This document shows positions 4,887 through 37,464 of a stretch of DNA of 64,000 bases, piece by piece. The notes under the pieces were generated by a model that ran no database searches, had not been told where the DNA came from, and saw nothing but the letters and a program-made list of their open reading frames with translations. Numbering within the stretch: position 1 is the stretch's first letter; each line of letters begins with the position of its first letter. The translations under genes and the position numbers were made by a program. Origin of the DNA: Parcubacteria group bacterium (GTDB taxonomy: Bacteria; Patescibacteriota; Patescibacteriia; UBA2169); contig JACOYR010000004.1 of the NCBI GenBank assembly GCA_016181765.1, positions 35,320-99,319 of the forward strand. The letters are read 5' to 3'.

Positions 4887-5715
4887 GGCGTTTTTCCGGC
4901 AGATTGAATCCCCACTTCCTAAAATATTTCAGGGCGCTCCCTAGATGTATCCAGGACATCTTGTTGAAGAACGATAAATAGAAATGGCTTGATACGGACG
5001 CGCGGCCGTGGTAGTGGATGATTTCCACATCCGAAAGGTACCGCACCTCAAAGCCTGCTTCCCAGAACCTGCGGCACCAGTCCGTGTCTTCCAGGAACAA
5101 AAAGAATCGCTCATCCATCAAGCCCACCTGTTTGATTGCCTCGCGCCGCGCGATCATGCACGAGCCCTGCACCCAGTCCACCTGCCGGTTGTCCGTGTGG
5201 TCCCAATCCATCATCAGGTACTTTTTGATTGCGCGCTGCGCGAACCCGAGCCGCGCAAGCGGCGTGCGGCGGTACATTAAAACCTGGGGCGAGGGGAAGC
5301 GGTACACAAAATACTGCAAGCTCCCGTCCGGCGAAAGCAATCGCGGACCCGCGATCCCGACGTTCGGGTTTGCGTCCATATAATCCGCCATTGCCTTGAG
5401 GGAGTTGTCCCAGATCACGATATCCGGATTCATGATGAGCGCATACCGCCCAGCCGAACGGCTGATGCCCAGATTATTGCCCGCGGAAAACCCCTTGTTC
5501 TCTTTAGACTCCAAAAGCTTGACCTGCGGAAACCGCGGCAAAATCTTTTCTTTGATATACGCAACCGACCCGTCCGTGGACGCGTTGTCCACGATGACAA
5601 TTTCATAATCAAGATCCGCGGTATGTTGAACCATGCCCTTGATGCAGGGCAGGAGGAAATCCTTGGTGTTGTAATTAAGTATGATGGCTGACAGGTCCAT
5701 ATTTTCGGATGTCAT
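4879..5715 (-). CDS. family 2 glycosyltransferase
   Basis: 278 aa. Motif EIVIVDNASTDGS, a DxD-type motif and GT2 length. The ATG at 5715..5713 lies inside a TGTCAT repeat element. Confidence 0.85.
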   Translation of the reverse strand: MTSENMDLSAIILNYNTKDFLLPCIKGMVQHTADLDYEIVIVDNASTDGSVAYIKEKILPRFPQVKLLESKENKGFSAGNNLGISRSAGRYALIMNPDIVIWDNSLKAMADYMDANPNVGIAGPRLLSPDGSLQYFVYRFPSPQVLMYRRTPLARLGFAQRAIKKYLMMDWDHTDNRQVDWVQGSCMIARREAIKQVGLMDERFFLFLEDTDWCRRFWEAGFEVRYLSDVEIIHYHGRASVSSHFYLSFFNKMSWIHLGSALKYFRKWGFNLPEKRHA

Positions 5716-5770
5716 TGCGAAGCGCCAATGAGGCGCTGAAGCAATCCTTGTCCCGAGCGAAGCGTGGGGA

Positions 5771-6655
5771 TTATCGTCGCAATAGGGGTACGTATATAAA
5801 TTTAAGCAGTTCGTACACGGCTACAAACGGCATGCGCCACCAGTCTCTCCATGAGAGATTTTTTTTGAGCATCAGCAAATGGTTCTTGTAACTCTCTTCT
5901 TTGGCCCAATCGTGCCGTGACTTCCTGTTACCTTTTGAGACCGCTCGTTGATGGAGAGCCATTGCTTTTATAGCTAGTCTTGATTCATAGCCCGTGCGAT
6001 TTAGCCGCCAGGCAAGGTCAGCGTCCTCTTTGTACATCCAAAACCTCTCGTCAAAGATGCCGTACTTATCTTTGGCTGATTCCAAGGCCGAAAGCCTATA
6101 AAGCGCGCATGCCCCGGACACGCCCCAGACCCTCTCTGTGGGCTCAAATTTTGCGTTTTCAAGCTTGTTTTCGCCAGTATTGGCCACCTGGCCCCAAGGC
6201 AGTATTTTAATGCCCAGTGAGTCAATTATGCCAGATTTTTGGCCAAAAGGCAATATTTTATAGGTTTTGGGGGCTACCGCGGCTATCCGACTTCCCCCCC
6301 CTGTAATCAGGGGGGGATTAAAGGGGGGGTCTGCCTCCATTTTAGCAACCATCTCCTTGAGGCACCCTTCTTGCAGTTCCACATCCGGATTCAACACTAA
6401 AACATACGGCGCTGCGCACTCCGCAAATCCTTGATTGTGCGCCCTTGCAAATCCCTTGTTGTCGTTATTGGTGATGACGCGAACTTCGGGATGATATTTT
6501 CGAACCCAATCAAGTGTCCCATCTGTTGATGCGTTGTCAATCACAAGAATATCAAAATCAACACCCTGCTGTTTTGCGATTCCCCTAAACAGGCGCTCAA
6601 GGTGTTCTTGCGAATTGTGTGTAACAATCTGGATTTGAACTTTCGGCATAATCAA
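5771..6655 (-). CDS. family 2 glycosyltransferase
   Basis: 294 aa with motif ILVIDNASTDGT. It contains an in-frame C8/G7 hairpin insertion encoding EADPPFNPPLITGGGS. Its ATG overlaps the hicA stop (ATGA). Confidence 0.85.
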   Translation of the reverse strand: MIMPKVQIQIVTHNSQEHLERLFRGIAKQQGVDFDILVIDNASTDGTLDWVRKYHPEVRVITNNDNKGFARAHNQGFAECAAPYVLVLNPDVELQEGCLKEMVAKMEADPPFNPPLITGGGSRIAAVAPKTYKILPFGQKSGIIDSLGIKILPWGQVANTGENKLENAKFEPTERVWGVSGACALYRLSALESAKDKYGIFDERFWMYKEDADLAWRLNRTGYESRLAIKAMALHQRAVSKGNRKSRHDWAKEESYKNHLLMLKKNLSWRDWWRMPFVAVYELLKFIYVPLLRR

Positions 6656-6879
6656 GAGTTAAGCAATTCAAAATACCGCTCCCTGCTCATGCCAGCGGTT
6701 TTGAGCAGGCCCTCTATGATATACACCGGAACCTGCCGATACATAGGGATGATGAGCGAACGCTTAGTGCCTGTCTTGTCATATACCAAATGGTCGCCCC
6801 TGGTTCTGATATGCGTGAAACCGTCCCGTACGAACACGTGCACCAGCTCCCTCCAATGTACCGGCGCCATCCTGGGCAT
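6652..6879 (-). CDS. hicA: HicA-family toxin (YcfA-like mRNA interferase)
   Basis: 75 aa. The sequence ELVHVFVRDGFTHIRTRGDHLVYDKTGTKRSLIIPMYRQVPVYIIEGLLKTAGMS matches the HicA/YcfA pattern (GSH-like RGDH, then PxH-type IP). Confidence 0.75.
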   Translation of the reverse strand: MPRMAPVHWRELVHVFVRDGFTHIRTRGDHLVYDKTGTKRSLIIPMYRQVPVYIIEGLLKTAGMSRERYFELLNS

Positions 6880-6882
6880 ACG

Positions 6883-7170
6883 CTAAATCGCCACGCTCAT
6901 CTTTTCGTGCTTGACAATCTCCGGAGGTTTCCACTCTTGATCGTACGTAAAACCCAGTTCTTCTAGTACATCCTTAGTCGTACCTTTACGTTCTGTCTCC
7001 TCGAAAAAAATCTCCGTGACTTCCTGTATATTTTTCCAGGCTTCCTCGACTGTATACCCGCACGACGAAAGCTGCAACAAAGGAATGTGTGCCACATACA
7101 TATCTCCTTCTTTCCAGATTTGGGTGTCCAGTTGCACAAATGATGACTGCATACGCCCACAGTATATCAA
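6883..7170 (-). CDS. hicB: HicB-family antitoxin (UPF0150-like N-terminal domain)
   Basis: 95 aa (or 89 aa from the second Met). It lies 3 nt upstream of hicA. The sequence YVAHIPLL..GYTVEEAWKNIQEVTEIFFEE is typical of HicB/UPF0150. It overlaps the 3' end of the Wzy-like gene by 4 nt. Confidence 0.7.
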   Translation of the reverse strand: MIYCGRMQSSFVQLDTQIWKEGDMYVAHIPLLQLSSCGYTVEEAWKNIQEVTEIFFEETERKGTTKDVLEELGFTYDQEWKPPEIVKHEKMSVAI

Positions 7171-8705
7171 GTATCCTGCTTTTTATCAACCAACCCCGTC
7201 ACCAACATCACGATGCTGATTCCTAAGGGATGGTTCAAGTACGGGCTTACGCCATGCGTGAGCACAACTGCAACAAGCCCGGCTAATGCGCCCAAGATGA
7301 AATAGTTCTTCTCGCGGCTCGCGATGCGCCAGCCGGACTTGAGGATGCGCCAGAGCAGATAGAGGTACGCGCCAACGCCGAGCAAGCCTATCTTCAGCCA
7401 CATCTCCAACCAGCCCAGTTCAAAGGCCGTAGTGGTGTAATTTCCGTCCGGATTATTTTTTAGCACGCGCGGGTCTTGGGATTGGTAGGTCACGCTGGTC
7501 CCGAATCCTGCGCCGAGCACCGGATGGTTCTTGATTGATTCAAGCAATGGTCGGATTTGCGCATAGCGGGACGAAACCGCTGCTTCGCCCGTGAATTTCC
7601 CGGCGCGGTTTTTTATGAGGTCAGCGTCCGCGTTGCTTGGCGGAATCGGGAACTGCATGGCAACCACGACAAGCCCTAAAGCCAATACGCCCGTGCCCGC
7701 GGTGATGGCGACAAAACGCCCGATGGTTTTGATGCGCTTGGGCATTATGACGAACAGCGCGATAATTAAAGCGACAAACGCAATAACCATTGCCAGCCAA
7801 AAACTGCGCGAAAAACTTGCAATGATGGCAGCCAAAGACAATACCAACAATCCAATAGTCATTGCGAGGCCATAGGCCGAAGCAATCTTATTGTCGCCAT
7901 AAGGCTTATTGCTTACATTAGGCTCCGTCTCGTTGTTAGGATTGCTTCGCTTCGCTCGCAATGACATAAAGAGAACACCGAGCAACATAAACACTCCGAA
8001 CACCAGCCAAATCTGGGACTGCATAAAGATGCGCGAGAGAATGGCAGTGGGATCCACGTTTGTAATTTCCGCAAGATGGCTGGCTCGCGACCATGCATAC
8101 AACACATCCTGCAATCCGAACAGTTCATGGCTGAAGATGTAAAACAAGATGACGGTCTTGGCCGCGAGGTATCCCATGGCCGCGGTTATGACAATGCCTA
8201 CGCGCCGCAGAGCGTCAGACGAAGAGAGCACATCATACATCGGAAATATCAAGGCAAAATATAAATAATTGTTGGCATCCGAAAAAACCAATCCCAGTTC
8301 ATTGCCGCGAAGTGCGCCCCATGCAATCCCCCAGCCGAGGATGACCGCAAGCGCCAAATAGGGTTTGAATAGTTTTGAATGTAAAAACTCAATCCTGCGC
8401 TTCTGCGCGGCGCGCGCTCCCCACGCCAGCATGACTGCAAGCCACAGCGCCATGCGGATTGACACCTCAAACCCGCCAATGGAAATTTCCAGCATCCTGC
8501 CGAATGAGCCAATCACCAGCTCACCAAAAACCAGCATCACCCCATGCTCAAGCCGGCGTATGGTCAAAACAATTGCGCTGACTGCAACAATGCCAAACAG
8601 CCACGCGCCTGTTTGCGGGGATGCGAATGACAGGAACGACAGCGCTTCAGCCAGAACTGCAAAAATGATTGAATATTTAAATAGAGTCATATGAGCGATT
8701 GTCAT
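7167..8705 (-). CDS. O-antigen ligase / Wzy-like polytopic membrane protein
   Basis: About 510 aa with at least 10 predicted TM helices and a large loop, as in the O-antigen ligase (Wzy_C) family. The upstream part of the ORF looks like non-coding extension. The start is uncertain (ATG 8705 or 8690). It contains an in-frame copy of the TGTCAT repeat, encoding RAKRSNPNNETEPNVSNKPYGDN. Confidence 0.65.
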   Translation of the reverse strand: MTIAHMTLFKYSIIFAVLAEALSFLSFASPQTGAWLFGIVAVSAIVLTIRRLEHGVMLVFGELVIGSFGRMLEISIGGFEVSIRMALWLAVMLAWGARAAQKRRIEFLHSKLFKPYLALAVILGWGIAWGALRGNELGLVFSDANNYLYFALIFPMYDVLSSSDALRRVGIVITAAMGYLAAKTVILFYIFSHELFGLQDVLYAWSRASHLAEITNVDPTAILSRIFMQSQIWLVFGVFMLLGVLFMSLRAKRSNPNNETEPNVSNKPYGDNKIASAYGLAMTIGLLVLSLAAIIASFSRSFWLAMVIAFVALIIALFVIMPKRIKTIGRFVAITAGTGVLALGLVVVAMQFPIPPSNADADLIKNRAGKFTGEAAVSSRYAQIRPLLESIKNHPVLGAGFGTSVTYQSQDPRVLKNNPDGNYTTTAFELGWLEMWLKIGLLGVGAYLYLLWRILKSGWRIASREKNYFILGALAGLVAVVLTHGVSPYLNHPLGISIVMLVTGLVDKKQDT

Positions 8706-8830
8706 TGCGAGGAGGCGTACTCGCCAACGAAGCAATCTTATCAGCGCGATGAGGAGGGTCATAGTAAAGACATACCTAAACGCGACGTTAAGTTTGCTTC
8801 GCCCTTGAGTACAGGGTCTCGCAATGACAA
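8700..8830. repeat. MITE-like element: two inverted ~38 nt TGTCATTGCGAG..GAAGCAATC units flanking a 54 nt core
   Basis: Left unit TGTCATTGCGAGGAGGCGTACTCGCCAACGAAGCAATC (8700-8737). Right unit in reverse orientation GTTTGCTTCGCCCTTGAGTACAGGGTCTCGCAATGACAA (8792-8830). Solo units at 5710-5747, 7939-7966 and 10889-10913. Confidence 0.6.
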
Positions 8831-8911
8831 TGGTATCATACCTTTTTTGGGCAAAAAAAACAGGGGGATCTCTCAAGACTATCCGAGAGTCCCCCTTGAT
8901 ACGCCGCAGGG

Positions 8912-9334
8912 CTACTTGCCCTTACTCCTCTTCTTTCCGCCTCCCTTGGACGCGATCAATCCTGCAATCCCACCCGTGATGGTTCCGGGTTTGGGATGGG
9001 CCTCGTCCTGCTGGGAGTGACTATGGGATGCGCCACTACCCTGCGATTTGGGCGACGGGGATGTTGGCTGTGCCCGCTTTGAACGGTCACTGGGCCGGCG
9101 CACCCTGGCCGTGTCATTCGGCGGGCCAAGCACGAGCTTCCACACCTGGACGTTGCCGCGGCCCAGACAGACCGTGCATTGGGGCGGCGCAAGCTGCAAG
9201 TCAACTTCAGCTTCATCCAGAACTGCCTGTACTTGCGGCCGCAACTTGGCGCACACCTTTTTGCACAAGCACTTGCCACTGCCTTTGCAGTGTTCACACA
9301 GCTTTGGCGTGGACACTGGTTGCCTGATTCTCAT
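8912..9334 (-). CDS. small DnaJ-type zinc-finger protein (two CxxCxGxG motifs) with C-terminal hydrophobic/poly-Lys tail
   Basis: Start ATG at 9334..9332 overlaps the stop of the upstream gene (ATGA). It carries CEHCKGSG and CTVCLGRG (canonical CxxCxGxG) plus CLCKKVC. The C-terminus is GGIAGLIASKGGGKKRSKGK. The region looks locally GC-rich. Confidence 0.55.
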   Translation of the reverse strand: MRIRQPVSTPKLCEHCKGSGKCLCKKVCAKLRPQVQAVLDEAEVDLQLAPPQCTVCLGRGNVQVWKLVLGPPNDTARVRRPSDRSKRAQPTSPSPKSQGSGASHSHSQQDEAHPKPGTITGGIAGLIASKGGGKKRSKGK

Positions 9335-10023
9335 CTCGCCGCCTCCCCATGCTCGCACAGACGCATGGTGGAAACCGCCTCCGCCTGCACAGCCTGTTTG
9401 ACGCACGGGAGAACGAGGCGAAGCCTGAACCTGGCGAACCACACGAAGCCGAACTCGAACCGGTCGACGTCCACGTAAAGCCTCTCGCGGTCGCCGAAGT
9501 AGAAGAAGGCGATGAAGAAGTTTCCTCCCGACTTGAAGAGAAAGAACGTCGCATGCCCGTCGGTGCGGAGCCAGCCGCGGTACTTCCTGATAAAGCCCAC
9601 AATCTGGCTCTGGGTCAGGCAGAGGCGGCCGGTATCAGCGGAGACCGAGCCGAACATCTGGCCGAACGTCGCGTCGCGAGCCAGTCTATAGACAGCAACC
9701 GGCGCGGCTGCTGTCGGGCCGCTCGCCTCGTTCGCACCCCAGTTGACGAAGTCCGGGTCAATGCCGCCGGTAAAAAGGTCCGTGGCGCCGGGGATGGTCT
9801 CCTGCCCGTCCGTCTCGTCTATGACGAGCGTCTTGCCGCCGGAGATGAGGCGGAGAATGGGCTCGACCCCCAATGACCCGAACCGGCCTTCGTGGAATGC
9901 CTGCAGGGCAGCGAGCGCCCGCTCCGGATCGTACGGATACTCATCCTGCCCGAGCTGGCGCAGGATTTCTCCGAGCCGCCTGCTTGCGGTTCTCTGCTGA
10001 TCGCCGGTGAGAATGTATCCCAC
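9331..10023 (-). CDS. hypothetical protein (no family recognised), first gene of a GC-rich two-gene cassette
   Basis: 230 aa. GTG start with a strong SD (GAGGGAGGA, 5 nt spacer). Translationally coupled to the zinc-finger gene downstream. Confidence 0.55.
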   Translation of the reverse strand: MGYILTGDQQRTASRRLGEILRQLGQDEYPYDPERALAALQAFHEGRFGSLGVEPILRLISGGKTLVIDETDGQETIPGATDLFTGGIDPDFVNWGANEASGPTAAAPVAVYRLARDATFGQMFGSVSADTGRLCLTQSQIVGFIRKYRGWLRTDGHATFFLFKSGGNFFIAFFYFGDRERLYVDVDRFEFGFVWFARFRLRLVLPCVKQAVQAEAVSTMRLCEHGEAAR

Positions 10024-10172
10024 GACAATCCTCCCTCTTGTAATGGCTTATACTCGCCAGCACCCCATGTGCCGACAAATACTCGCCGGTATGAAAAGAT
10101 CTACCACCCGTGAATAGCCACGGCGCTTCTGCCTCATTAATTGAGGCAATAATCTATAATACCACTTCCCCA

Positions 10173-11090
10173 CTACTTCGTCAAGTAGCGCCAGGCGCTA
10201 CGGAAAAACCACCACTGCTTTTGGACGGTTCCCGCCTGGCCGAATGACTGTCCTCCATGGTGGATGATGGACGTGCCGGGCCAGTACACTACTTTGAAGC
10301 CCGCACGCTTGGCGCGGCGGCAGAAATCAACCTCCTCAAACCAGATAAAGTACTTGTCATCCAGCGCTCCCACCCCCCCTTTGTCCCCCCCTCGGGCAGG
10401 GGGGGAAAGCTTTTCTATCGCACTGCGCCGGATGCACATAAACGCGCCCATGACCTGGTCCGCCTCTGACTCACGGGCATAGTCAAAATCTTTTGCCAGA
10501 TAATAATTCAACAAAGATGGAAACAGTTTGTACAGTTTGAAAAATATAATTGCGATGTCGCGCACACGCGGAAACCGCCGCACCGAGGGCTGGAGTGTGC
10601 CGTCCGGATTCAAGAGCTTGCATCCCAGAACGCCAATGGAGGTATCGCTCTCCATCTTATCAAACACCTTCTTGAGCGAGTTCTCGGTGAATTCGGTGTC
10701 CGGGTTCAGTAATAAAACATATTTCCCGGATGATTCTTTGATGGCGATATTGTTTGCCGCGGCAAAACCTAAATTTTTTGAATTACGAATCAGCTTGATT
10801 GTCATCCCGAGGGGGTATTCGCCCCCGAGGGATCCCTTGTACGTTCCATTTGCAGGCTGTAAGGGATTCCTCCACTCCGCTCGCCTTCGGCTCGCTTCGG
10901 TCGGAATGACATCAAAATTACTCTCCAGCATCTCCACTGTTCCATCGGATGACGCATTATCAACCACAATCACCTCAAAACCAACGCCTGCAGTATATGC
11001 ATATAAAGACTCCAGGCACTTCTCCAAAAGGCCTTTTACGTTCCAGGATATGATGATGACCGAGATATCCATACACCAGCACAGTAGCAT
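10173..11090 (-). CDS. family 2 glycosyltransferase (with two in-frame repeat-element insertions)
   Basis: 305 aa with motif EVIVVDNASSDGT and a DxD-like motif. The extra segments ASRRRAEWRNPLQPANGTYKGSLGGEYPLGMTI and SPPARGGDKGG are encoded by GC-hairpin/TGTCAT-like repeats. Confidence 0.8.
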   Translation of the reverse strand: MLLCWCMDISVIIISWNVKGLLEKCLESLYAYTAGVGFEVIVVDNASSDGTVEMLESNFDVIPTEASRRRAEWRNPLQPANGTYKGSLGGEYPLGMTIKLIRNSKNLGFAAANNIAIKESSGKYVLLLNPDTEFTENSLKKVFDKMESDTSIGVLGCKLLNPDGTLQPSVRRFPRVRDIAIIFFKLYKLFPSLLNYYLAKDFDYARESEADQVMGAFMCIRRSAIEKLSPPARGGDKGGVGALDDKYFIWFEEVDFCRRAKRAGFKVVYWPGTSIIHHGGQSFGQAGTVQKQWWFFRSAWRYLTK

Positions 11091-12902: not shown

Positions 12903-13939
12903 ATTTCTGTTTTCTGATAACCGTTTTCTATCTGCGTAATAATTGCCTCCGCAATCTGCCCGATATTACCCGGCTCAACCAAAACGCCATTATCCCCCAC
13001 GGCCTCGGGCACGCCGCCCACGCGTGACCCTATGACGGGTTTATTAAACATCTGCGCTTCTTTGTACACAATGCCATAGCCCTCAAAATCATTGGGATCG
13101 TCTGTGGGGGTGAGTATAAAGCAATCGCAGGCCGAGAGCCAGGCATACTTCTCCTCATCGCTCACTTCGCCGGTGAACATAACGTGTCCGCCCCGGCTGG
13201 ACAGTTCCAGCTCCCGCCTCTCTGTTCCATCGCCGACCACCACGTACACGAGCTCCGGAACAATCTTCCAAACCTCGCGCAATGAGCGCAACACAACATC
13301 AATCCCCTTTCGCTTTACCAGGCGGCCGACCGAAAGCAGGATCGGCCGTGCGCCGAGCGCGTACTTTTGGCGGAGTTCGGCTGCATGCGCCCGGTAGCGG
13401 GCGGGGTCAACCTTCGGAACGCGCGGGTAAGAAACGCGCGCGCGTGAAGGGTCAATGCCGTATTTTAGAAGCAATTGGCTCGTTGCACGGCTGTTCGCAA
13501 TAATCTCGGAAGCTTCGCGCAGAATCCTTGATGCCCACCATCGCTTCCAGGCTGAACGCCGCGCCATCACCAAATCAAGGCCGTGCACGTACACGCGATA
13601 CGGAATTTTGAATCTCCACTTCCACCACAAGGCGGCATAGCCAATAGGCAGGATATGGGAAATCCAGAGATAATCAGGCCGACCACCCCCTAACCCCCTC
13701 CTGGATACAGGAGGGGGAATCGCGCGCCACAACAATGGCAGCCAGTGCGGCCACTTGTCCCAGAAATGCTCCTCGGCCCTCATGACCCGAACCAACTCGC
13801 GTGACGCGCCAACTTCGCCGGCGAGATAGGTCGCAACCCCGCCATATTTCGGGGCCCCCAGCGATTCCTGCGGAATCGTCTGGGGTAAACTCGGCGGGTA
13901 CTCAAGCGTGAGCAGCAAGGGATGTTTTCTGTTCGGCAT
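12899..13939 (-). CDS. GT4-family (GT-B fold) glycosyltransferase with two in-frame palindromic insertions
   Basis: C-terminal GT4 signature EGYGIVYKEAQMFNKPVIGSRVGGVPE. N-terminal EYPP..GGVATY motif is split by an inserted segment. A second insertion PPPVSRRGLGGGRPDY is encoded by a GC-hairpin element. Start taken at MPNRK (13939), ahead of the EYPP block. Confidence 0.8.
   Translation of the reverse strand: MPNRKHPLLLTLEYPPSLPQTIPQESLGAPKYGGVATYLAGEVGASRELVRVMRAEEHFWDKWPHWLPLLWRAIPPPVSRRGLGGGRPDYLWISHILPIGYAALWWKWRFKIPYRVYVHGLDLVMARRSAWKRWWASRILREASEIIANSRATSQLLLKYGIDPSRARVSYPRVPKVDPARYRAHAAELRQKYALGARPILLSVGRLVKRKGIDVVLRSLREVWKIVPELVYVVVGDGTERRELELSSRGGHVMFTGEVSDEEKYAWLSACDCFILTPTDDPNDFEGYGIVYKEAQMFNKPVIGSRVGGVPEAVGDNGVLVEPGNIGQIAEAIITQIENGYQKTEI
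13683..13719. repeat. GC-hairpin repeat element, copy inside the GT4 coding sequence
   Basis: CCACCCCCTAACCCCCTCCT-ggatac-AGGAGGGGGAA. Same family as the copies at 21065, 37428 and 37563. Confidence 0.7.
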
Positions 13940-21060: not shown

Positions 21061-21064
21061 AGTA

Positions 21065-21102
21065 CCACCCCCTTGCCCCCTCCTCATTAGAGGAGGGGGG
21101 AA
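21065..21102. repeat. GC-hairpin repeat element at the murC / CDP-alcohol-PT junction
   Basis: CCACCCCCTTGCCCCCTCCTC-atta-GAGGAGGGGGGAA. The first 22 nt are identical to the copy at 37563. Confidence 0.7.
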
Positions 21103-27865: not shown

Positions 27866-28015
27866 AAACTGCTATGATAGCGCATCATAGCGGTTGATGC
27901 AAGCAACCTAATACAATTACTTTGGGGAATGGCTGGTAATTCCGAAACAACGTTATTCCTTCCACTTAATGGAACACCCCATGGAGGGGGGTTTTGATTT
28001 GCACGAGCCTGAATT

Positions 28016-28882
28016 TCAGATATTTTTATTTCTGATCTGTCGCGCGTTCTTGCCGGTAATTGCGCTGTTTCCGGTTTTTTTCTCTATGGACTTTCGGGCC
28101 GCGCCAGCCACGCTCCCGCCTTCGCGCGCCACGGTTTTATTTTCATCCAAATTTTTCGGTTCTCTTTTTTCCGATATTTCAGTGGTCGCGGTTTCGGCAA
28201 GCATATTCAAAACCAATTCCAAATTAGTCATATTGTCCCGCAGATTTTCTTTTTTCAGCCCTTTGAGATTTTTATACTCCTTGGTGGTCAATCCGGCCCA
28301 TGCCCGGCTTATCTCATCGGTTAGAATTGCAAACTCCAGACCTTGTTTCATGCCCCGTTTTTCCCATTCATCAGTAAGCGCTTTGCGGATTTCAATGCTT
28401 TTGAGGCGCTGATTGACCCACTCCGGGCTGTATCCTTTTTGCAGGTATGTTTTTAAGGCACGATTAATGGCCAATTCGGGATCTGCTGTTTCTTCCAAGC
28501 GCTCATAGCCCACTTGCGCCAGCCAAAGCTTAAATGGTTCGGCATTTGGCGAAGGTATTGACTGGATGAGCCGGAGCATAACCTCTGTATCGGTGGCATC
28601 TGTGGCATAATATTTGCCATCTTTAGCCATAAATTTCAGTTCGTGACATTTTGTCACGGACTGACTACCTTCTTCTTTTAGTCTTTGTTTTAACTTTCTC
28701 CAATATGCCCCGGCATCAATACTGTTAGTTAACACTCTCACCACATCAATCACAGAAAAATACCAGAGTTCTTTTTCATCATCCCAGTGGCGGCGAATTT
28801 GATTGCCCTCAAAAAGCGCGATGGATTTATTTTTTGATTGTTTCTTTTCGTTGTTCATATATAATCCGTTGCCATTTTCCAT
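28016..28882 (-). CDS. Bro-N / KilA-N-like DNA-binding domain protein (DinD/antirepressor-like)
   Basis: 288 aa. The N-terminal block IALFEGNQIRRHWDDEKELWYFSVIDVVRVL fits the Bro-N pattern (F.G..IR...D.E.WF...DV...L). The rest is alpha-helical. Confidence 0.55.
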   Translation of the reverse strand: MENGNGLYMNNEKKQSKNKSIALFEGNQIRRHWDDEKELWYFSVIDVVRVLTNSIDAGAYWRKLKQRLKEEGSQSVTKCHELKFMAKDGKYYATDATDTEVMLRLIQSIPSPNAEPFKLWLAQVGYERLEETADPELAINRALKTYLQKGYSPEWVNQRLKSIEIRKALTDEWEKRGMKQGLEFAILTDEISRAWAGLTTKEYKNLKGLKKENLRDNMTNLELVLNMLAETATTEISEKREPKNLDENKTVAREGGSVAGAARKSIEKKTGNSAITGKNARQIRNKNI

Positions 28883-28890
28883 TCTATCTC

Positions 28891-29196
28891 TTATTTGACA
28901 AATTGACTACCAAAAGCCCTGTGCAATATAGATTGCTCCAAAGCCGCCAAATCATCACGGGTTGATTTTTGGTATTCCTTTAGCCGCCGAACCTTCTCGG
29001 CAAGCTGGTGAAATGGGATGGTGAAATGGGGACATGACCCATTTTTGATGACCCATATTTCCCGTTTCTGCGTGACCAGCCGGAAATGACTCAATCGGTT
29101 GTAGTAGCTCTTATAGGAATACGCGATGAACTCGCTTGCATAACTCACCCAACCAAGCCCTTCGCAAAATTTATTTCTTACCCTTGCCGAAAACAA
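28891..29196 (-). pseudogene. remnant of a type I restriction-modification S subunit (HsdS C-terminal fragment)
   Basis: 101 aa ORF whose end LAEKVRRLKEYQKSTRDDLAALEQSILHRAFGSQFVK resembles the conserved C-terminal helix of HsdS (..L..LKQSILQKAF.G..). No complete target-recognition domains and no hsdM or hsdR nearby. Confidence 0.35.
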
Positions 29197-29692
29197 AATC
29201 TAGAGTAGGATCTAATTCTTTTAATAATTTTTTATGTTCTTGGAGAATTTCTTCTTGAATTTTTATTGATTCAGCCATACACCAATCACGTATAAGTTCA
29301 TAATTTTTGTTTTCCTTGCAATCTTTAGCTATCCCCTTTCCTTCAACCTCTTCCTTCATCATGTTTATTGCGAGTATAGAGATACATGCTTTTTTATCAT
29401 CTATGTATTGAGATAGCCCTGTATAACCCACTATTAGGTCGCTAAAGTCATCTCCATGTTTTGAGAATATAATCGCTATTTTAATCGCTTCTTTAATTTC
29501 GTCTTTTGAATAAGGCAATATAGAAATTGGCGCTCCAAAAACCATATAAGCTGATTTTTCCATTATCTTCCCATAATCATTGATTATTTTTTCAGCTTCT
29601 TTGACATCCATAGAGGGGAGAAAAAAGGTTTCAGGAATTGTTTTTATTGAGGGAACGATGACCTTGGTGGCGGTGATGGTGGGTGGATTCAT
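29171..29692 (-). CDS. hypothetical protein (AT-rich island)
   Basis: About 173 aa from MNPPTIT. No recognisable domain. Codon usage matches the AT-rich island. Confidence 0.45.
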   Translation of the reverse strand: MNPPTITATKVIVPSIKTIPETFFLPSMDVKEAEKIINDYGKIMEKSAYMVFGAPISILPYSKDEIKEAIKIAIIFSKHGDDFSDLIVGYTGLSQYIDDKKACISILAINMMKEEVEGKGIAKDCKENKNYELIRDWCMAESIKIQEEILQEHKKLLKELDPTLDFVFGKGKK

Positions 29693-29705
29693 GTTGATAT
29701 AAGGC

Positions 29706-31043
29706 TCATCTAAACAAACTTTTGAACCAACTTTGAATTCTCGAAAAGAAAATAAAATTAAGTTTTGACTCCGTCGTTTTCTCATTGCTGGTTTCAAAAT
29801 CAGTAATAATATCTTCTACGACAAATTGATTAGTTGTATTTATTTCTTCTGCAGTCTGTTCTGGCTCAATCTGGACGCACGAATTACCAACTTCTCTATA
29901 CCCGTCATCACACAGCCACACATCTGTTAGGCTTTCTACAGCATGCGCATGTTCTGGAATTTGTATGCAATATTTTTTATTTAACGAAAGAGCATATCCT
30001 TCATTACAATGGATACTTGCTTCTTTTTCTTCCCTAACCACTTCGCTAGAAAGCACCCTAGCTCCTGTTTCATTCTCTGTAGTTGTAGCCTCTATACCGG
30101 GTTGAGTATTTGTAGATTTATCAATAGATGGCGTAGCTACCACAGGAGTAGTAGGAGTATCTTGTTCTACAGTGGCAGGAGAAGCAAAAATTGGTTCGCG
30201 TTGATTTTGTTTATCACTATTGAATAGATTAACCCTTGAATTAAGATTATTCAACAATTGCTCGTAAGAATTGTCTACTTCCTCTATGCACCTCTCATTT
30301 TCAAAAATATACCCATAGTCACACTCGCATGTTTTCGAAGAAGAATCGTAACTTGAATAATAACCATAATTATCATGGCAGTATGAATCACCATCTACAC
30401 AGGTTTGCCCCCCAAATAAATTCGTATCCAGAACATACCCTCTGCCACACTTACAACTATCGGTTAAAATATCGTGTTCAGCATTCCATCCCAGCAACTC
30501 TTGACAATAATCATCTCGCGACACACACTTCCCGCCATTCAAAATATAGCCATAACTACATTTACACGAACTAGTCAGGGAGTTATAACTTGAATTATAG
30601 CCATACAAATTCCTACAATAGGTATTGCCAGAAACACATTCCTTATCACCAAAAATATTCGTATCCACTACATAGCTATAATTACACTCACATCCACCAG
30701 ACAACGAATCATATGAAGAGTTTAAAGGACACGAAGGCCTAGAAGGAATTGAGGGGGTTAGGAAATCGTAATTCAATGAAGGATATGTGTAATCAGGCGC
30801 TGGGGTGGTATAGCCAGTACCACCATCGCCCCAATGGCTATGTATAGGATCAGATGGTTGTGGTAATCCTTTATTGTTATGACAGTGGTACTCGCCATAA
30901 GACAACCCCCAAGAACTGCAGTTCGTTCTACAAGTATGGCAACCCGAGCCATCAGTGCCCCCGGGATGAGCGAAAGTAGAATCCGATAATCCAAATATGA
31001 CAAAGGTTGCCCCCAGTAGTATGAAAAAAAATCTAAGGCGCAT
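29706..31043 (-). CDS. secreted protein with N-terminal His/Cys-rich module and four tandem ~40 aa Cys-rich repeats
   Basis: 445 aa. Signal peptide MRLRFFFILLGATFVIFGLSDSTFA. N-terminal module HPGGTDGSGCHTCRTNCSSWGLSYGEYHCH. Four repeats of the form C(E/K)CxYGYxL..xxCVxxDxYC. A Thr/Pro-rich linker and an acidic C-terminal domain follow. Confidence 0.6.
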   Translation of the reverse strand: MRLRFFFILLGATFVIFGLSDSTFAHPGGTDGSGCHTCRTNCSSWGLSYGEYHCHNNKGLPQPSDPIHSHWGDGGTGYTTPAPDYTYPSLNYDFLTPSIPSRPSCPLNSSYDSLSGGCECNYSYVVDTNIFGDKECVSGNTYCRNLYGYNSSYNSLTSSCKCSYGYILNGGKCVSRDDYCQELLGWNAEHDILTDSCKCGRGYVLDTNLFGGQTCVDGDSYCHDNYGYYSSYDSSSKTCECDYGYIFENERCIEEVDNSYEQLLNNLNSRVNLFNSDKQNQREPIFASPATVEQDTPTTPVVATPSIDKSTNTQPGIEATTTENETGARVLSSEVVREEKEASIHCNEGYALSLNKKYCIQIPEHAHAVESLTDVWLCDDGYREVGNSCVQIEPEQTAEEINTTNQFVVEDIITDFETSNEKTTESKLNFIFFSRIQSWFKSLFR

Positions 31044-31070
31044 AATCTAATAGTGAGTCGGAAAACCTAT

Positions 31071-32537
31071 CTAAAGTTCCCATTTAAAGTAACGATTCAC
31101 CGCATATTCAACGCCTACGCGGAAACGATTAGTGCGCTTATCATTCTCAATTTCATGAATTTCCCGATCTAGCGCATCAATTTCTGATTTAACGCGATTT
31201 TTTTCTTTTTCTTTCATCTCATGATAACGCCTATCTATATCGCCAATACTTTCTTTAAGGACTTTCTCGTTCTGTGTAATTAGAGCATCCTTCCTTGTAT
31301 GAATATTTGTTATGTCTGTCTTTGTAGTTCTCACTTGGTTAAAAATTTTTTTTAAATGAGAATGTAGCCGCTTTACCGTGGGAGATGAGACAAAAAGGCC
31401 TTCAAATGGCTTTATTGCTGTACGCGATATCAACTCAATGATGAATAACACTAAACACACCAACCATTTAATTCCATATGTAATACTGCCGAGGAATGAT
31501 TTGATCGTCCTCCAAACAAGGCTCCACTCGGTATGGCTCAAAAATAATGCGGCAAGAAAACCAACCCCAAAAAATAGGGCTATATATACAAGGTCACTAA
31601 AATTTTCGTTTATATTTTCACGGCGATAAAAGTACAAAGAAACTGGAATACTTATAAGTGTAACAATACCTATCAATAGCGCTATTGCCTCAAACAACTT
31701 TTTCAATAAACTAGGACACGACTTGTGGTTGTGAAAAAATTTTACACCCTCAAAAGCGAAAACCATAATAACCATAAAAGCAATTGTAAATTGGATCAGA
31801 CTTATCCCGTCACCACGGTTCCACACGGGGATTGCGTCTATATTGAGTCGTGAGCTAATGTAATAATCTACAATGAGCAACACAATAAAAATCACAATTG
31901 GCCACCAATGCGCAACAGCACTAAATCCATCAAGCGATGTAGTTAATTTATCGTGCGTGTCCAATAGCCATTTTTTTGATGCTACTGTGATTGGATTTTT
32001 TCTTGCCTTTTGCTTCTCTTCTCTGTACTCCTTTTCCGCATCAAGAAGCGCAATAGTTAATCTTTCTTTTTCTGATTCAAATTTTGTCAATTTCTCAACC
32101 AAGCTCTGCAGTTCTATATCAAGTTTTTGAATTTCATTCTCCAAAGATTGCTTAAAATTGTTTAAATGTTTTTCTGCGTACTCGTGTTCATTTTTTAAAT
32201 TTTGCTCAAGACGCGCGACAAACTCTTTGCGTTCTTCTTCTAATTTAGTTTTTTTTAATCTCAATATTTCAATACGCTCCTGCATATTCGTCATAAATTT
32301 CGGCTTCGGAACACTATCCCAAATTCTGGACTTAGCTATGCCATGCTGTTTGTCTAGTGGCTCATTTTTAAACGAAGTATCAATTTCATTAAGAATACGA
32401 CGATTCAAATTCTTAGTAGCGATTCTGCCAACATTAACGCCGCGACCGAAACGGCTTGTATAGTACACAATAGTGGCCAGTAATGCAGCCCCTCCAATAC
32501 CCGGCACTGCGATTGCGATGATTTGCCAGTAATTCAT
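31071..32537 (-). CDS. membrane protein with flanking coiled-coil regions (unknown function)
   Basis: 488 aa. N-terminal TM, long heptad-like KE-rich helix, four central TM helices and a C-terminal coiled coil. No family recognised. Confidence 0.5.
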   Translation of the reverse strand: MNYWQIIAIAVPGIGGAALLATIVYYTSRFGRGVNVGRIATKNLNRRILNEIDTSFKNEPLDKQHGIAKSRIWDSVPKPKFMTNMQERIEILRLKKTKLEEERKEFVARLEQNLKNEHEYAEKHLNNFKQSLENEIQKLDIELQSLVEKLTKFESEKERLTIALLDAEKEYREEKQKARKNPITVASKKWLLDTHDKLTTSLDGFSAVAHWWPIVIFIVLLIVDYYISSRLNIDAIPVWNRGDGISLIQFTIAFMVIMVFAFEGVKFFHNHKSCPSLLKKLFEAIALLIGIVTLISIPVSLYFYRRENINENFSDLVYIALFFGVGFLAALFLSHTEWSLVWRTIKSFLGSITYGIKWLVCLVLFIIELISRTAIKPFEGLFVSSPTVKRLHSHLKKIFNQVRTTKTDITNIHTRKDALITQNEKVLKESIGDIDRRYHEMKEKEKNRVKSEIDALDREIHEIENDKRTNRFRVGVEYAVNRYFKWEL

Positions 32538-32541
32538 ATAG

Positions 32542-33918
32542 TTATCTACAAAGATGATTTAAATAAATACTGCGTTTAATTTGTGCGAAGCTCTCATCTT
32601 CGTCCTCATTCTTAAAAAGTTTAATACAAGCGTTAGAAGAGATAACAGCATTAAAAGTCGCGCCAATATCACTAATATACCGTTGAGGGCAAACGAGCGA
32701 AATATTGTAGAGAGGGTATTTCACCCTGGCTTCTTCTTGTGCTATTTCTGAATCAATCTCCTGGTGCTCTGTAATGTATTTTCTCTGTTGAGCGCTATTA
32801 TTATTATTCTGCTGTTGAAAATATGCCCCACAATCTTGCAAAAATTTCGCGTATGAATCTGATTCTATTTGGTATGTATTTTTCCAACCATATGTTTTAG
32901 GAAGACCAGTCATCGTGCCAGCAGTAACAATAACAACTTTATCATCCGACTCTTTCATAGAACTTAAATTCTCAACAGAAGGATCAAGGTAAAGCTTTTG
33001 TTGTGTGAACCAATCTTTAAAAGTATTTTGTAACACATCAGTCTCGTGCCAAGTACAACTAAATTTATCATTATTTTTAATGTCGCAAGTATGCTCTTTA
33101 ACAGTAGTTATATAAAGCACTTCAGTTTTTCGAGAATCGTCTCTTTCTTTTGCCATTCTAAAAATTGGGTATGATCGTTTTAACTCCAAAGTTAGTGTGC
33201 TGCCGTTTTCGGCTTTTGTTTCAAACTGCAAAGTGTCGCTGGAAGGAAGTTCTGATATGTATCCATTCACAATTCGAGTTATTTCTTTAATGTCATTTGA
33301 AGTAGTGGGCGCAAGAACCAACTTTGTTGTTGTGTTTGAATTTGTAAGTGTGGTAGTAAATGGGGGTTGTAATTCGGTATCTTCCCCTTCAATTTTTTGA
33401 CGCAGTTCAACCCAAACCTGTGGAGTAATCACTTCAGAATATCCATCCGCAATAAACTTAACTTTGTTTGCGATAGGATCAATCTCAAATGACTTTTTGA
33501 AATCCAGATTTTTCTGTTTATTGAGTATTGCGCTCCATACGCCAGGAGATTCTTGATCTCTTGCTTCATAAGGAAGAATAATAAGACAATAATCATCCAC
33601 ATCTGCACCCCTGAAAGTAAAAGCCGTATTGCCTTCTTTTTGATTACAAATAGAATCGAGAGGAGGAGGGTCCACAATCTTAAACATCCCAAACACAATC
33701 CCAGCCACAATCAAAATAATTACAGTAGCAACAATAATCGTTTCCTGTGTATCCTTGCGCTCTTTTAATCTATCACTCCCTGGCGGGACCTGTGGGTGTG
33801 TATCCATCATAGGAAGTAACGTTATCTCCTCTAGCCGTTGTTTCTCAATTTCTTTTCCACAGTTAGGACAAAAATTGTCTTTCTCTTTAAGTTGTTCTCC
33901 GCACTTACTGCAATACAT
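32542..33918 (-). CDS. zinc-ribbon / single-pass membrane protein with large extracytoplasmic domain (unknown function)
   Basis: 458 aa. N-terminus MYCSKCGEQLKEKDNFCPNCG (CxxC..CxxC zinc ribbon), one TM helix (IIVATVIILIVAGIVFGMF), then a roughly 370 aa Ser/Thr/Asn-rich ectodomain. Confidence 0.5.
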   Translation of the reverse strand: MYCSKCGEQLKEKDNFCPNCGKEIEKQRLEEITLLPMMDTHPQVPPGSDRLKERKDTQETIIVATVIILIVAGIVFGMFKIVDPPPLDSICNQKEGNTAFTFRGADVDDYCLIILPYEARDQESPGVWSAILNKQKNLDFKKSFEIDPIANKVKFIADGYSEVITPQVWVELRQKIEGEDTELQPPFTTTLTNSNTTTKLVLAPTTSNDIKEITRIVNGYISELPSSDTLQFETKAENGSTLTLELKRSYPIFRMAKERDDSRKTEVLYITTVKEHTCDIKNNDKFSCTWHETDVLQNTFKDWFTQQKLYLDPSVENLSSMKESDDKVVIVTAGTMTGLPKTYGWKNTYQIESDSYAKFLQDCGAYFQQQNNNNSAQQRKYITEHQEIDSEIAQEEARVKYPLYNISLVCPQRYISDIGATFNAVISSNACIKLFKNEDEDESFAQIKRSIYLNHLCR

Positions 33919-33944
33919 ATCCGAACCATAGCTAAATAAGCTTA

Positions 33945-34175
33945 TTATGGCAAGCTCTCACATGCCTCACCATCTTTATTCCCATCTAGCCGATGAATAT
34001 CATTACTTACCCCGCCACAGGACTCAAACACACGCTGTGCTTCTGCGCGTGTCTTAAAATCTGAACAGTTATAGGCATTGCTGTCACAAATTGTGTTGTT
34101 GGATGAGCCAGCGCTGCAACCTGTCAACGCCAAACTGGCAAGGAGCAGTAGCAAGATGTAGTGTAGTTGTCGCAT
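33945..34175 (-). CDS. Excalibur (extracellular Ca-binding) domain lipoprotein
   Basis: 76 aa from MRQLHY. Lipobox LTGC. DxDxDGxxCE-type motif LDGNKDGEACE. Near-identical to the C-terminal 55 aa of the adjacent thermonuclease. Confidence 0.6.
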   Translation of the reverse strand: MRQLHYILLLLLASLALTGCSAGSSNNTICDSNAYNCSDFKTRAEAQRVFESCGGVSNDIHRLDGNKDGEACESLP

Positions 34176-34197
34176 ATAATTTAGTTTAATGCCAAAT

Positions 34198-35091
34198 TTA
34201 AGGTAAACTCTCGCACGCCTCGCCATCGCCATCCGCATCAAGACGATGGATGTCGTTTGCCACGCCGCCACACTGCTCAAACGCGGCCTGGGCTTCTGCG
34301 TGCGTTGTAAAGTTACTGCAGTTGTAAACATTGTTTGAACAATCGTACTGGCCTTGCGCTTGTGGCTCTGTATCTGGTTCTATAGTCGAGGGGGGTGGAG
34401 CGCTTGGTGCTGGCTCCCCTTGCTCTACTTCATCTGCGTCCGCGCACACGCCATCCGCCCACAGACCGCGCTTTGCTACGCGCGCCTCGTCCTCGGCTTG
34501 TTTAAATTGTTCTTGATACTTATATGGCAGGTTGTAGGTGTATTCGTGTCCATACCCCTCGCGTATCATCAAGTCGCTAAAGTTGGCGCCATCTTCAAAA
34601 AAAACGTAACGAAGCAAACGGCTGTACTTGTCGCGCTCGCCCTGGGTTGGATCTGCTTCCAGTCGGACACGATTACCGCTTAATACCTCCTTGGCTTTGT
34701 TGGATGCCTCTATGCCAAAACACTGTACTGGCTTTCGGGGATCAACTGTTTCTGGCGTGTCTATGCCAATGAGGCGTATAGTTTCGCTTGAGCCGTCCAT
34801 GTCAACAGCAATCGTATCCCCGTCAACTACTCTCACAACATCATATAATACTTCATCTGTGCTGGTTGCATTTTTATCCGTGTCATTATGTCCTTCAACT
34901 GGTTCAATAGCATCGTCATCTACGGCTGATTCATTTGAAACACTTGCGCCTTCAGCTTGTTGATTTTGGTCTGAAATATTCTGTGTCGGCGCGCTCGCGG
35001 ATTGACTTTTTGCATTACGAACATTATCTGAAGAAGATGTACATCCGCTTAATATAATAGATAAAATACTTAAAACAACGATCTTCTTCAT
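34198..35091 (-). CDS. thermonuclease (SNase-like) lipoprotein with C-terminal Excalibur domain
   Basis: 297 aa. Lipobox ILSGC. SNase core VDGDTIAV..IRLIGIDTPE..GE..ASNKAKEVL..RLLRYVF..REGYG. The C-terminus is an Excalibur motif LDADGDGEACE. Confidence 0.75.
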   Translation of the reverse strand: MKKIVVLSILSIILSGCTSSSDNVRNAKSQSASAPTQNISDQNQQAEGASVSNESAVDDDAIEPVEGHNDTDKNATSTDEVLYDVVRVVDGDTIAVDMDGSSETIRLIGIDTPETVDPRKPVQCFGIEASNKAKEVLSGNRVRLEADPTQGERDKYSRLLRYVFFEDGANFSDLMIREGYGHEYTYNLPYKYQEQFKQAEDEARVAKRGLWADGVCADADEVEQGEPAPSAPPPSTIEPDTEPQAQGQYDCSNNVYNCSNFTTHAEAQAAFEQCGGVANDIHRLDADGDGEACESLP

Positions 35092-35231
35092 AAAATTTTA
35101 TGGTTGTTATAAGGATATATGGCCTAACGTTTCGGCATATGATGCTGTATGAGCAATACGGGTGGAGTGAAGCGGAACCGCATACACGCCGTTGTACGAT
35201 GTAATGAAAAAAGTTTTAATTTCTAGTGCAA

Positions 35232-36464: not shown

Positions 36465-36575
36465 AATCTAAAGATACCTTTTATGATTATTTCTAAAACC
36501 ATTAGTGGAAAGAAATACTAAAACTTTTCATTATTTCGCCTAACTACTTGCTACCCCAAACACGCACAATGTGTA

Positions 36576-37265
36576 CTATTTCTTTTGCTTAAAAATAAAT
36601 ATCACAAACAAACCTATAACCACAAAATCAATCGCACCCCACAACGTCTTGTTATACAAATAAATAGGCATGATTGGATTAAACAGAATAGCAACAGCTA
36701 CAAAGCACCAAAACCAAAATCCTTTTTTCCGCAATGCCCGGTATAAGTAGTAGGCGTAGTAAATAGACGAGGCAGTCACAATAATCTTGGTAATAGTATA
36801 AAAACCATACGGCATCGGAAATACTGACAGAAACAGCACTATTGAGCTTACTATGGCGGGCCATCGGTAGAATTCAAGTTTGGAATGAACATGCGCCATA
36901 TGATTTTGCTCTGATTTTATCTTATTTGAGTGTAATAAATCCGTATTACGGCCATTTTCTTCTGTCTTTTCTACACTAGAAACATCACCGCCTAACAAAT
37001 ATATGCCATTTTTATAAACCACGACATCATGGCCAATAATCGTATTTATCTTATAACGATATTGCCTAATATGGTCTTCGGAGTAATCCTTTTCCCTATC
37101 CAAAAAATCGCCAATATCCGTTACTGTACCTTGCTTATTTGCGCATAAAAAAACAAGCACGCGGTAAGCGTTGCCGGTTAAGCGTAACTCCTTATTATGT
37201 TCATCAAAAACTTGCCTGCTATTAGTATCTAAACTAAAAAATTTATGTTTATACAACATATTCAT
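36576..37265 (-). CDS. ToxR/CadC-like membrane-anchored transcriptional regulator (OmpR-type winged HTH + C-terminal TM domain)
   Basis: 229 aa. The N-terminal ~90 aa (..ELRLTGNAYRVLVFLCANKQGTVTD..L..) fit the OmpR/PhoB C-terminal wHTH pattern. The C-terminal half has 3-4 TM helices. Confidence 0.5.
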   Translation of the reverse strand: MNMLYKHKFFSLDTNSRQVFDEHNKELRLTGNAYRVLVFLCANKQGTVTDIGDFLDREKDYSEDHIRQYRYKINTIIGHDVVVYKNGIYLLGGDVSSVEKTEENGRNTDLLHSNKIKSEQNHMAHVHSKLEFYRWPAIVSSIVLFLSVFPMPYGFYTITKIIVTASSIYYAYYLYRALRKKGFWFWCFVAVAILFNPIMPIYLYNKTLWGAIDFVVIGLFVIFIFKQKK

Positions 37266-37427
37266 CTCGTATTGTTGCTGTCAATCTATCATTTTCCAGC
37301 CTAAAAATCAACCCAAAACTCCCGCCTCCTCGGTGGGCAGACGGCTCATCCCAAAACAGCCGATCGGCTCATTTACACCATTTGAGCCGATCGCGGCCCG
37401 GATATGAGCCGATTTACCATCCCCCAA

Positions 37428-37464
37428 CCACCCCCTCGCCCCCTCCTTGGTAAAGGAGGGGGAA
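37428..37464. repeat. GC-hairpin repeat element (island / pilus-operon boundary, copy 1)
   Basis: CCACCCCCTCGCCCCCTCCTT-ggta-AAGGAGGGGGAA. Confidence 0.7.

Follow-up and report, generated by a model that had tools for sequence, protein, structure and literature searches.

An orphan retroelement variable-protein gene probably joined to a resident zinc-knuckle gene in a Patescibacteria polysaccharide locus

What kind of unit is formed by two overlapping genes with anonymous products that lie between a polymerase gene and a glycosyltransferase gene of a bacterial polysaccharide locus? The question arises in a 64-kb stretch of the 281-kb Parcubacteria contig JACOYR010000004.1 (hereafter the window), where open reading frame 1 (ORF1; locus tag HYT31_02660; 9331-10023, minus strand, 230 codons, GTG start at 10023) runs into ORF2 (HYT31_02655; 8912-9334, minus strand, 140 residues). 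The Shine-Dalgarno (SD) sequence of ORF1, AGAGGGAGGATTGTC, stands 5' of its GTG, and its TGA (9333-9331) overlaps the ORF2 ATG (9334-9332) as ATGA. A preliminary description had read the pair as a two-gene cassette, in which a protein without recognisable domain is coupled to a small DnaJ-type zinc-finger protein. Its observations are largely right: the 230-codon frame with its GTG and SD, the ATGA overlap, the ORF2 motifs CEHCKGSG, CLCKKVC and CTVCLGRG, the Ser/Pro-rich stretch, the C-terminal GGGKKRSKGK and the flanking Wzy_C (7170-8876) and Glycos_transf_2 (GT2; 10176-11090) genes are all found in the sequence and by Pfam, and the ORF2 product needs correcting from 141 to 140 residues. Its interpretation is partly right. 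We give a probability of about 70% to a different reading, in which one small unit was joined from two histories: an orphan, frozen copy of a variable-protein gene of a diversity-generating retroelement (DGR), and a resident, lineage-restricted ORF2.

Neither ORF1 nor ORF2 has an above-threshold match in Pfam, NCBIfam, PHROGs or PADLOC, and profiles of anti-phage defence and toxin-antitoxin systems (PADLOC, Pfam toxin-antitoxin families) match neither gene. For such libraries ORF1 is indeed without a recognisable domain; homology search, by contrast, leads to DGR variable proteins. ORF1 has 40 homologues of ~210-230 residues, all from Patescibacteria, in which the core (ORF1 residues 56-206) is conserved, the N-termini vary and the start codon equivalent to the window's GTG is ATG. 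With this conserved core behind it, ORF1 is a genuine gene. At one locus (L001), a bAvd gene and an RVT_1 reverse transcriptase (RT) lie downstream of the homologue. The last 124 nt of the L001 homologue recur 429 nt downstream with 81% identity, and 22 of the 23 mismatches fall on adenines of the downstream copy. Such adenine-biased mismatches between a variable region (VR) and a template repeat (TR) are the signature of a DGR.

A scan of GTDB species genomes extended the family to 79 loci, again all in Patescibacteria. Loci were classed as DGR-linked when an RT, Avd or TR lay within about 1.5 kb and as orphan when at least 2.5 kb of flank was available on both sides and no local RT was present; 48 are DGR-linked, 21 orphan, and 10 fall in neither class. 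The DGR-linked layout is fixed, with the target gene followed by a TR ~430 nt downstream, Avd on the opposite strand and the RT. Across 44 VR/TR pairs, 749 of 781 mismatches (95.9%) lie on template adenines, which occupy the first two positions of AAY codons at sites that correspond to ORF1 residues 173-201. The RTs of the family match each other at 1e-100 or better, and the nearest GTDB homologue of ORF1 (L007, 59% identity) is DGR-linked. Most family genes end in CCG CAA CTG (Ala) stop, after which there usually come a CT-rich spacer and a hairpin plus T-run; this canonical end is kept in 15 of the 21 orphan loci. Because a Patescibacteria-restricted DGR clade, whose targets have no transmembrane (TM) segments or recognisable domains, is already in the literature (PMC8144416), ORF1 belongs to a known type. 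Judged by homology, ORF1 is best described as a member of this Patescibacteria-specific variable-protein family.

Within the family, individual loci differ in the state and number of their targets. In L067, the VR (6410-6519) and TR (6861-6970) have the same sequence throughout 110 nt, and L081 shows only 2 VR/TR differences; both targets look undiversified or recently reset. L066 carries variable-protein genes on both sides of its RT. In L035, two variable-protein genes with identical VRs lie 2.4 kb from each other, and the flanks contain no RT.

What became of the retroelement in the window? The former VR of ORF1 can be placed, by homology to the L001 VR, at residues 169-206 (9406-9519, minus strand). 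At most of the sites with A in codon positions 1 and 2 of at least 50% of family TRs, the window carries NNC codons (TTC, TAC, GGC, GAC, CGC). Diversified codons that keep the third-position C indicate that 9406-9519 descends from a mutagenised VR. The machinery itself was sought throughout the 64 kb, the extent of all RT, Avd and TR searches. There, tblastn with the family RT and Avd gave no match better than E = 1.6, and no TR was detected by a generic repeat search, by sensitive blastn or by an adenine-tolerant ungapped scan, in which the best non-self site, located within an AT-rich island, differs by 31 non-A mismatches over 114 nt.

The 3' end of ORF1 is broken. Family homology ends exactly after the Pro206 codon CCG (9406), and the frame continues into ORF2 leader sequence. 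Compared with other family ends, the window copy is without the Gln-Leu-stop, the last 5-10 nt of VR/TR homology and the downstream hairpin/terminator. In their place stands a 24-codon read-through extension (9331-9405, minus strand) that reaches the ATGA overlap and holds a first copy of the ORF2 leader (9373-9387), a degenerate copy of ORF2 codons 7-15 (9349-9375; VSTMRLCEH vs VSTPKLCEH) and a second leader copy with an SD (9334-9348), all on the minus strand, so that the ORF2 leader is present twice in the window. We read the duplicated leader and the degenerate codons as the likely scar of the recombination that placed ORF1: the gene would have been inserted before a resident ORF2, cut after the Pro206 codon and fused to a duplicated ORF2 leader. 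Two other family members are altered near the same place. Protein P0004 (L098, ~1270, after CTC CCG codons) loses family homology at the same point as window position 9406, right after the Pro206 codon, and P0003 has lost its stop codon at the VR 3' boundary; recombination may break repeatedly at this edge of the VR.

These losses bear on whether the copy could still be rewritten. ORF1 might be an active remote target whose VR is diversified in trans by a DGR elsewhere in the genome. Remote targets are known for some DGRs and are overlooked by contig-limited surveys (PMC8144416), the window VR is in a diversified state, the 21 orphan loci have no local RT although 15 of them keep the canonical gene end, and L066 shows that one RT can be flanked by more than one target gene. 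Against this, the window copy has neither the last bases of VR/TR homology, which in the family extend a median of 5.5 nt beyond the Pro206 codon, nor the hairpin/terminator present downstream in most members, in addition to the TR, RT and Avd not found in the 64 kb. A weaker argument in the same direction is that the 8 contigs with ORF1 all encode an identical protein, which forms a single-member 90% cluster. We therefore regard continued diversification in trans as unlikely. In characterised DGRs, the VR 3' end and a downstream hairpin direct retrohoming, so by analogy the ORF1 copy can probably no longer be diversified. In the family, a C-terminal beta-rich surface is rewritten by adenine-specific mutagenic retrohoming from the TR; the window copy, ORF1, would now be a ligand-binding protein of fixed specificity.

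An AlphaFold2 (AF2) model of ORF1 has an overall predicted local distance difference test (pLDDT) score of 85.6, with core residues 56-205 above 93, and places the hypervariable positions alternately along beta strands. The protein has no signal peptide or TM helix. Foldseek against the whole PDB gave no match (best E 1.1, TM-score about 0.13) and did not return C-type lectin variable proteins, and a family profile search of PDB sequences was also negative. A previous report notes that VR domains of DGR targets in bacteria of the candidate phyla radiation (CPR) cannot be recognised as C-type lectin (Roux et al. 2021, PMC8144416).

Is ORF2, then, the natural partner of ORF1? The order GT2, slot, ORF2, terminator, Wzy is constant in all five genomes for which context is available. 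The window and L086 are collinear, with 71-76% nt identity across the GT2, ORF2 and Wzy genes, and ORF1 with its leader has no counterpart in L086. In the slot between GT2 and ORF2, the window has ORF1, L090 a 215-residue ORF, L092 a 201-residue ORF, L086 a 57-residue ORF and L093 nothing. Because this slot holds unrelated genes or none in relatives, the ORF1/ORF2 pairing is not conserved and is unique to this genome among the five loci, and the notion of a two-gene cassette does not survive the comparison. The suggestion of an unrelated inserted module, made in the preliminary description as an alternative, fits ORF1 and fails for ORF2, which is a resident gene. The L090 and L092 slot ORFs were considered as distant ORF1 relatives and rejected (hhalign probabilities <1%); the L092 slot protein is homologous to the C-terminal domain of P0039, a protein to which we return below.

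ORF2 belongs to a very small family. A word-indexed search returned the query itself and nothing else. An exhaustive HMMER search found four homologues with 36-62% identity, and a profile search added one, giving six members in 5.8 billion proteins. Invariant in this family are M1, R2, Q5, V7, C13, H15, C16, G18, G20, C22, C24, C28, R32, C53, C56, G58, R59, Q63, L69 and P72, so the Cys/Gly motifs noted earlier are indeed conserved in all five homologues. They comprise one invariant CxxCxGxG (C13-G20), one CxxCxGR(G/K/R) and a non-canonical CxCx2-3C. Seven Cys and one His would be enough for two zinc sites, and we take the first 70 residues as a predicted zinc-binding N-domain (residues 1-72, 9119-9334, minus strand), followed by a basic, disordered and unconserved tail. 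Ka/Ks values of 0.26-0.52 show that the N-domain is under purifying selection; the tail is near neutral. The outcomes that the preliminary description had named as refuting it, an ORF1 without coding potential and zinc-finger motifs that vary among homologues, were not observed. AF2 models the N-domain with moderate confidence (pLDDT 77-87) as strand, knuckle, helix, knuckle and strand, and the tail as disordered.

This evidence leaves almost no credence for the idea that ORF2 is a spurious frame in GC-rich DNA, such as the decayed TR/Avd region of a former DGR. The self-only result of the word-indexed search, a GC content at second codon positions (GC2) of 0.53 and several overlapping ORFs in other frames could be taken that way, but spurious frames would not be expected to have homologues with conserved Cys, His and Gly residues and the Ka/Ks values given above. 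A decayed TR/Avd remnant beneath ORF2 was also sought directly and rejected: 8877-9405 had no match in 85 family loci by tblastx, blastn or tblastn, and true homologues of ORF2 exist.

A more substantial question is whether the pair is a functional cassette after all, with ORF2 a TM-anchored DnaJ-type zinc-finger holdase or redox module that aids its partner or membrane proteins such as Wzy. ORF2 does have CxxCxGxG-type knuckles, the first of them invariant; the DnaJ central domain is its only Pfam hint, and its best PDB profile hint, at a weak E = 0.87, is a plant DnaJ-like zinc-finger protein. Its synteny beside Wzy is constant, and it overlaps ORF1 as ATGA. Against the Pfam DnaJ domain (PF00684, DnaJ_CXXCXGXG), however, ORF2 reaches 15.7 bits where the cut-off is 32.7 (E = 0.019), and no stretch of it passes alone; it has two knuckles rather than four and no J domain. 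A PDB sequence-profile search found no neighbour for it, and Foldseek returned nothing DnaJ-like above noise. No TM anchor is predicted either: the highest 19-residue Kyte-Doolittle mean is 0.71, with its peak outside the tail, and the C-terminal hydrophobic stretch noted earlier (ITGGIAGLIAS), too short and weak for a TM helix of about 18-22 residues, is unique to the window ORF2 and absent in all five homologues. Finally, a terminator separates ORF2 from wzy in 5/5 loci, and the pairing with ORF1 occurs in this genome alone. We therefore consider a TM-anchored DnaJ-type cassette rather unlikely and do not retain the DnaJ-type identity of ORF2. Part of the earlier idea of an accessory factor is worth keeping, as synteny makes a role tied to the polysaccharide locus plausible, without the membrane-anchored DnaJ holdase. 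With low confidence, and from motifs and gene order, we propose that ORF2 could be a cytoplasmic zinc-knuckle adaptor or holdase for the polysaccharide locus or for its upstream partner, co-produced with the slot protein.

The 5' side of ORF1 carries elements that recur elsewhere. A predicted sigma-70-like promoter (TTGACG-17-TATTAT with TG; 10156-10184, minus strand) lies ~150 nt upstream of ORF1, where it overlaps the GT2 gene at its 3' end; it agrees with the consensus at 10 of 12 positions and is the sole such site in 8600-10400. The surrounding block (10108-10190) is also conserved in L090 and L093, which are syntenic. In the RNA leader, some 15 nt before the SD, a G-U-rich hairpin of 17 bp can form (10045-10087, minus strand; folding z = -4.6 for the leader). 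In 7 distinct sequences, 119 of 119 cells of this hairpin are paired, and 8 of the 17 pairs vary compatibly, one of them by a double change, so that covariation support is weak. No Rfam family matched the leader, which may represent a cis-regulatory RNA not yet described or a site where a protein binds. A metagenome scan for the leader motif gave mostly chance matches, with 6 true leaders among 120.

Together, the promoter and leader (10024-10190, minus strand; leader ~120 nt) and the first ~50 codons of ORF1 have 80-89% nt identity to the upstream regions of the genes for P0002, P0004, P0039 and P0040 and of two metagenomic genes. The encoded N-terminal helical module of ~50 residues (MGYILTGDQQ...EGRF; 9874-10023, minus strand) is ~80% identical to those of P0039 and P0040, whose C-terminal domains are unrelated, and genes with the common leader and module differ in C-terminal domain (L004, L098, L094, L096, L132, L116). 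The closest ORF1 relatives, P0002-P0004 (60-67% identity), are located elsewhere and without ORF2, either upstream of ruvB or between repeats with genes of ribbon-helix-helix (RHH) and ParE type. On its 5' side, ORF1 joins the GT2-ORF2 locus at a 20-nt element, AGCGCCGTGGC.ATTCACGG, that is common to both kinds of locus.

Two of these other settings deserve description. The genes for P0039, P0040, P0003 and P0004 (L094, L096, L097 and L098), with the common leader and N-terminal module, all lie directly upstream of ruvB, a site that looks like a second exchangeable slot, with a C-terminal domain of the DGR-variable-protein, P0039 or P0040 type. The gene for P0002, the closest homologue of ORF1, is bracketed in L004 by 300-nt direct repeats that are 93% identical (5482-5781 and 6842-7141), each with an RHH antitoxin-like gene together with a partial ParE/YafQ-like toxin gene; this setting suggests duplication or insertion within a toxin-antitoxin array.

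Such modularity raises the possibility that ORF2 serves as constant subunit in a two-part protein, whose coupled slot partner has its domains swapped by recombination at common leader sequences. In three of the five loci (window, L090 and L092), a slot ORF of 200-230 residues overlaps the ORF2 start by 4 nt, and all three end in KQxxQAEAV(R). The slot is edged by short conserved sequences, AGCGCCGTGGC.ATTCACGG on the 5' side and CAGGCGGAGGCGGTGAG on the 3' side, the latter boundary being duplicated in the window, and the same promoter, leader and N-terminal module occur elsewhere with different C-terminal domains. The shared QAEAVR tail is, however, encoded by the leader of ORF2 itself, CAGGCGGAGGCGGTGAG(A/G)TGAGA, which is also found in L093 without an upstream ORF, and a frame that reads through the ORF2 ribosome-binding region may by itself produce the 4-nt overlap. 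Moreover, two of the five loci have no substantial slot gene, most genes with the leader and N-terminal module adjoin ruvB rather than ORF2, and a sample of five loci is very small. A two-part protein with ORF2 as constant subunit is thus, in our view, improbable. A bolder combination of these ideas, which we offer as doubtful speculation, is that the ORF1 scaffold may be something other than a C-type lectin, that frozen copies are shuffled with unrelated C-terminal domains behind a common promoter, leader hairpin and ~50-residue module into slots upstream of ruvB or ORF2, and that ORF2 acts as a constant, translationally coupled partner. If true, module shuffling would add, by recombination, a second layer to the diversification of ligand binding.

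Returning to the reading of a frozen variable-protein copy joined to a resident ORF2, we see several points that weigh against it. The step from lost 3' elements to inactivity follows by analogy with the Bordetella phage element. The searches covered 64 kb of a 281-kb contig, with which a trans-acting DGR elsewhere in the genome is compatible, as remote targets are known (PMC8144416). The 4-nt overlap of slot ORF and ORF2 in 3/5 loci could mean functional coupling, and the function proposed for ORF2 is based on motifs and synteny, without a significant structural or profile match.

If the preferred reading is right, the pair would form a single transcription unit that starts from the promoter near 10170, continues through the structured leader, ORF1 and ORF2, and stops near 8870, with both genes co-transcribed from their own promoter. 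The intrinsic terminator that would end this unit (8853-8896, minus strand; GGGGGACUCUC...GAGAGAUCCCCC then U8) was missed by a simple terminator scanner because of a bulge in the stem. It is 90% identical to that of L086, and a hairpin with T8 follows ORF2, before Wzy, in 5/5 loci.

The base composition of the pair had been taken as a sign of foreign origin. ORF1 has 63.5% GC and, at 0.805, the highest third-position GC (GC3) among the 50 long ORFs of the window, and ORF2 has 60% GC, whereas the adjoining glycosyltransferase and Wzy sugar genes have 48-51%. The window mean per ORF is 54% +/- 8, and other window genes reach up to 65%. The contrast between the pair and the sugar genes is therefore real without being extreme, the low-GC sugar genes are equally atypical, and what stands of the earlier claim is that the GC of the pair lies above that of the flanks. 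Elsewhere in the window, a sharp low-GC island (~28000-37300), with ORFs of 33-39% GC against the mean of 54%, is compositionally far more foreign than the pair and holds several ORFs of 400-490 residues without a significant Pfam match.

The pair sits within a longer polysaccharide locus that includes a Wzx-type flippase, a family-4 glycosyltransferase (GT4), several GT2s, DUF4012 and MreB. Between Wzy and the next GT2 gene, a HicA toxin gene (E = 4.9e-10) with a weak HicB-like antitoxin gene is inserted (6652-7170, minus strand); this is a separate neighbouring module, and L086 has other small genes at the equivalent syntenic place. A short palindromic element, CATTGCGAG...CGAAGCAA, also occurs four times in the window, at 7860-7885(+), 7942-7963(-), 8703-8735(+) and 8794-8826(-), where chance would predict none. 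The copies form two inverted pairs, one in frame within the Wzy gene and the other between the ORF2 terminator and the Wzy start, a spacing that is ~220 nt in the window vs ~86 nt in relatives; the four elements look like insertions of miniature inverted-repeat transposable elements. A dispersed repeat of ~42 nt, CCACCCCCT..GCCCCCTCCT....AGGAGGGGG, at 13679-13720, 21061-21102, 37424-37465 and 37557-37598, makes a C-run/G-run hairpin; it may represent a shared terminator or an element of the repetitive extragenic palindromic kind.

More broadly, the locus suggests that variable-protein genes of candidate-phyla DGRs can separate from their retroelement and be taken up, with fixed specificity, into a cell-surface polysaccharide locus. 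About a quarter of the family copies are orphan (21 of 79), and surveys restricted to RT-linked targets miss them. With a confident predicted structure and no detectable PDB neighbour, the ORF1 family bears on the question raised by Roux et al. (2021) of whether CPR targets have new C-type lectin variants or another scaffold. ORF2, in turn, exemplifies a very narrow, predicted zinc-binding micro-family that a word-indexed search missed and only exhaustive profile searching found. The understanding of DGRs or of Wzy-dependent synthesis is unchanged; what is refined is annotation, as an anonymous pair of unknown protein and zinc finger can now be interpreted.

Comparison with known systems places each gene more precisely. 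As in DnaJ/Hsp40 proteins (PF00684), where repeats 1 and 4 act together, the C13-G20 CxxCxGxG of ORF2 and the CxxCxG(R) ~35 residues later could ligate one zinc. In contrast to the four CxxCxGxG repeats and two zinc centres of DnaJ, ORF2 has two knuckles, accompanied by an extra invariant CxCx(2-3)C and a His outside the DnaJ pattern, and it has no J domain, substrate-binding domain or structural match. Stand-alone DnaJ-like zinc-finger proteins do exist, for example plant proteins of the BSD2 type; ORF2 differs from the DnaJ group in its sub-threshold Pfam score and in a family of 6 members among 5.8 billion proteins.

For ORF1, the structurally characterised counterparts are Mtd of Bordetella phage BPP-1, TvpA of Treponema denticola and TaqVP of Thermus aquaticus, which are all C-type lectin folds. 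The ORF1 family resembles them in concentrating its hypervariable residues, encoded by AAY-templated codons, in the last ~40 residues, and differs in that the confident ORF1 model has no detectable PDB fold match. Also comparable are the 'DGR clade 2' targets of CPR bacteria (PMC8144416): residues 56-206 of ORF1 are homologous to proteins with a ~120-nt C-terminal VR that is paired to a TR by mismatches at adenines only and neighbours Avd and an RT, and ORF1 likewise has a modular N-terminus and no TM segment or recognisable domain. By contrast with those targets, ORF1 has no TR, Avd or RT in the 64 kb, its 3' end is cut at the VR boundary and fused to the leader of another gene, and it is embedded in a polysaccharide locus rather than in a DGR cassette.

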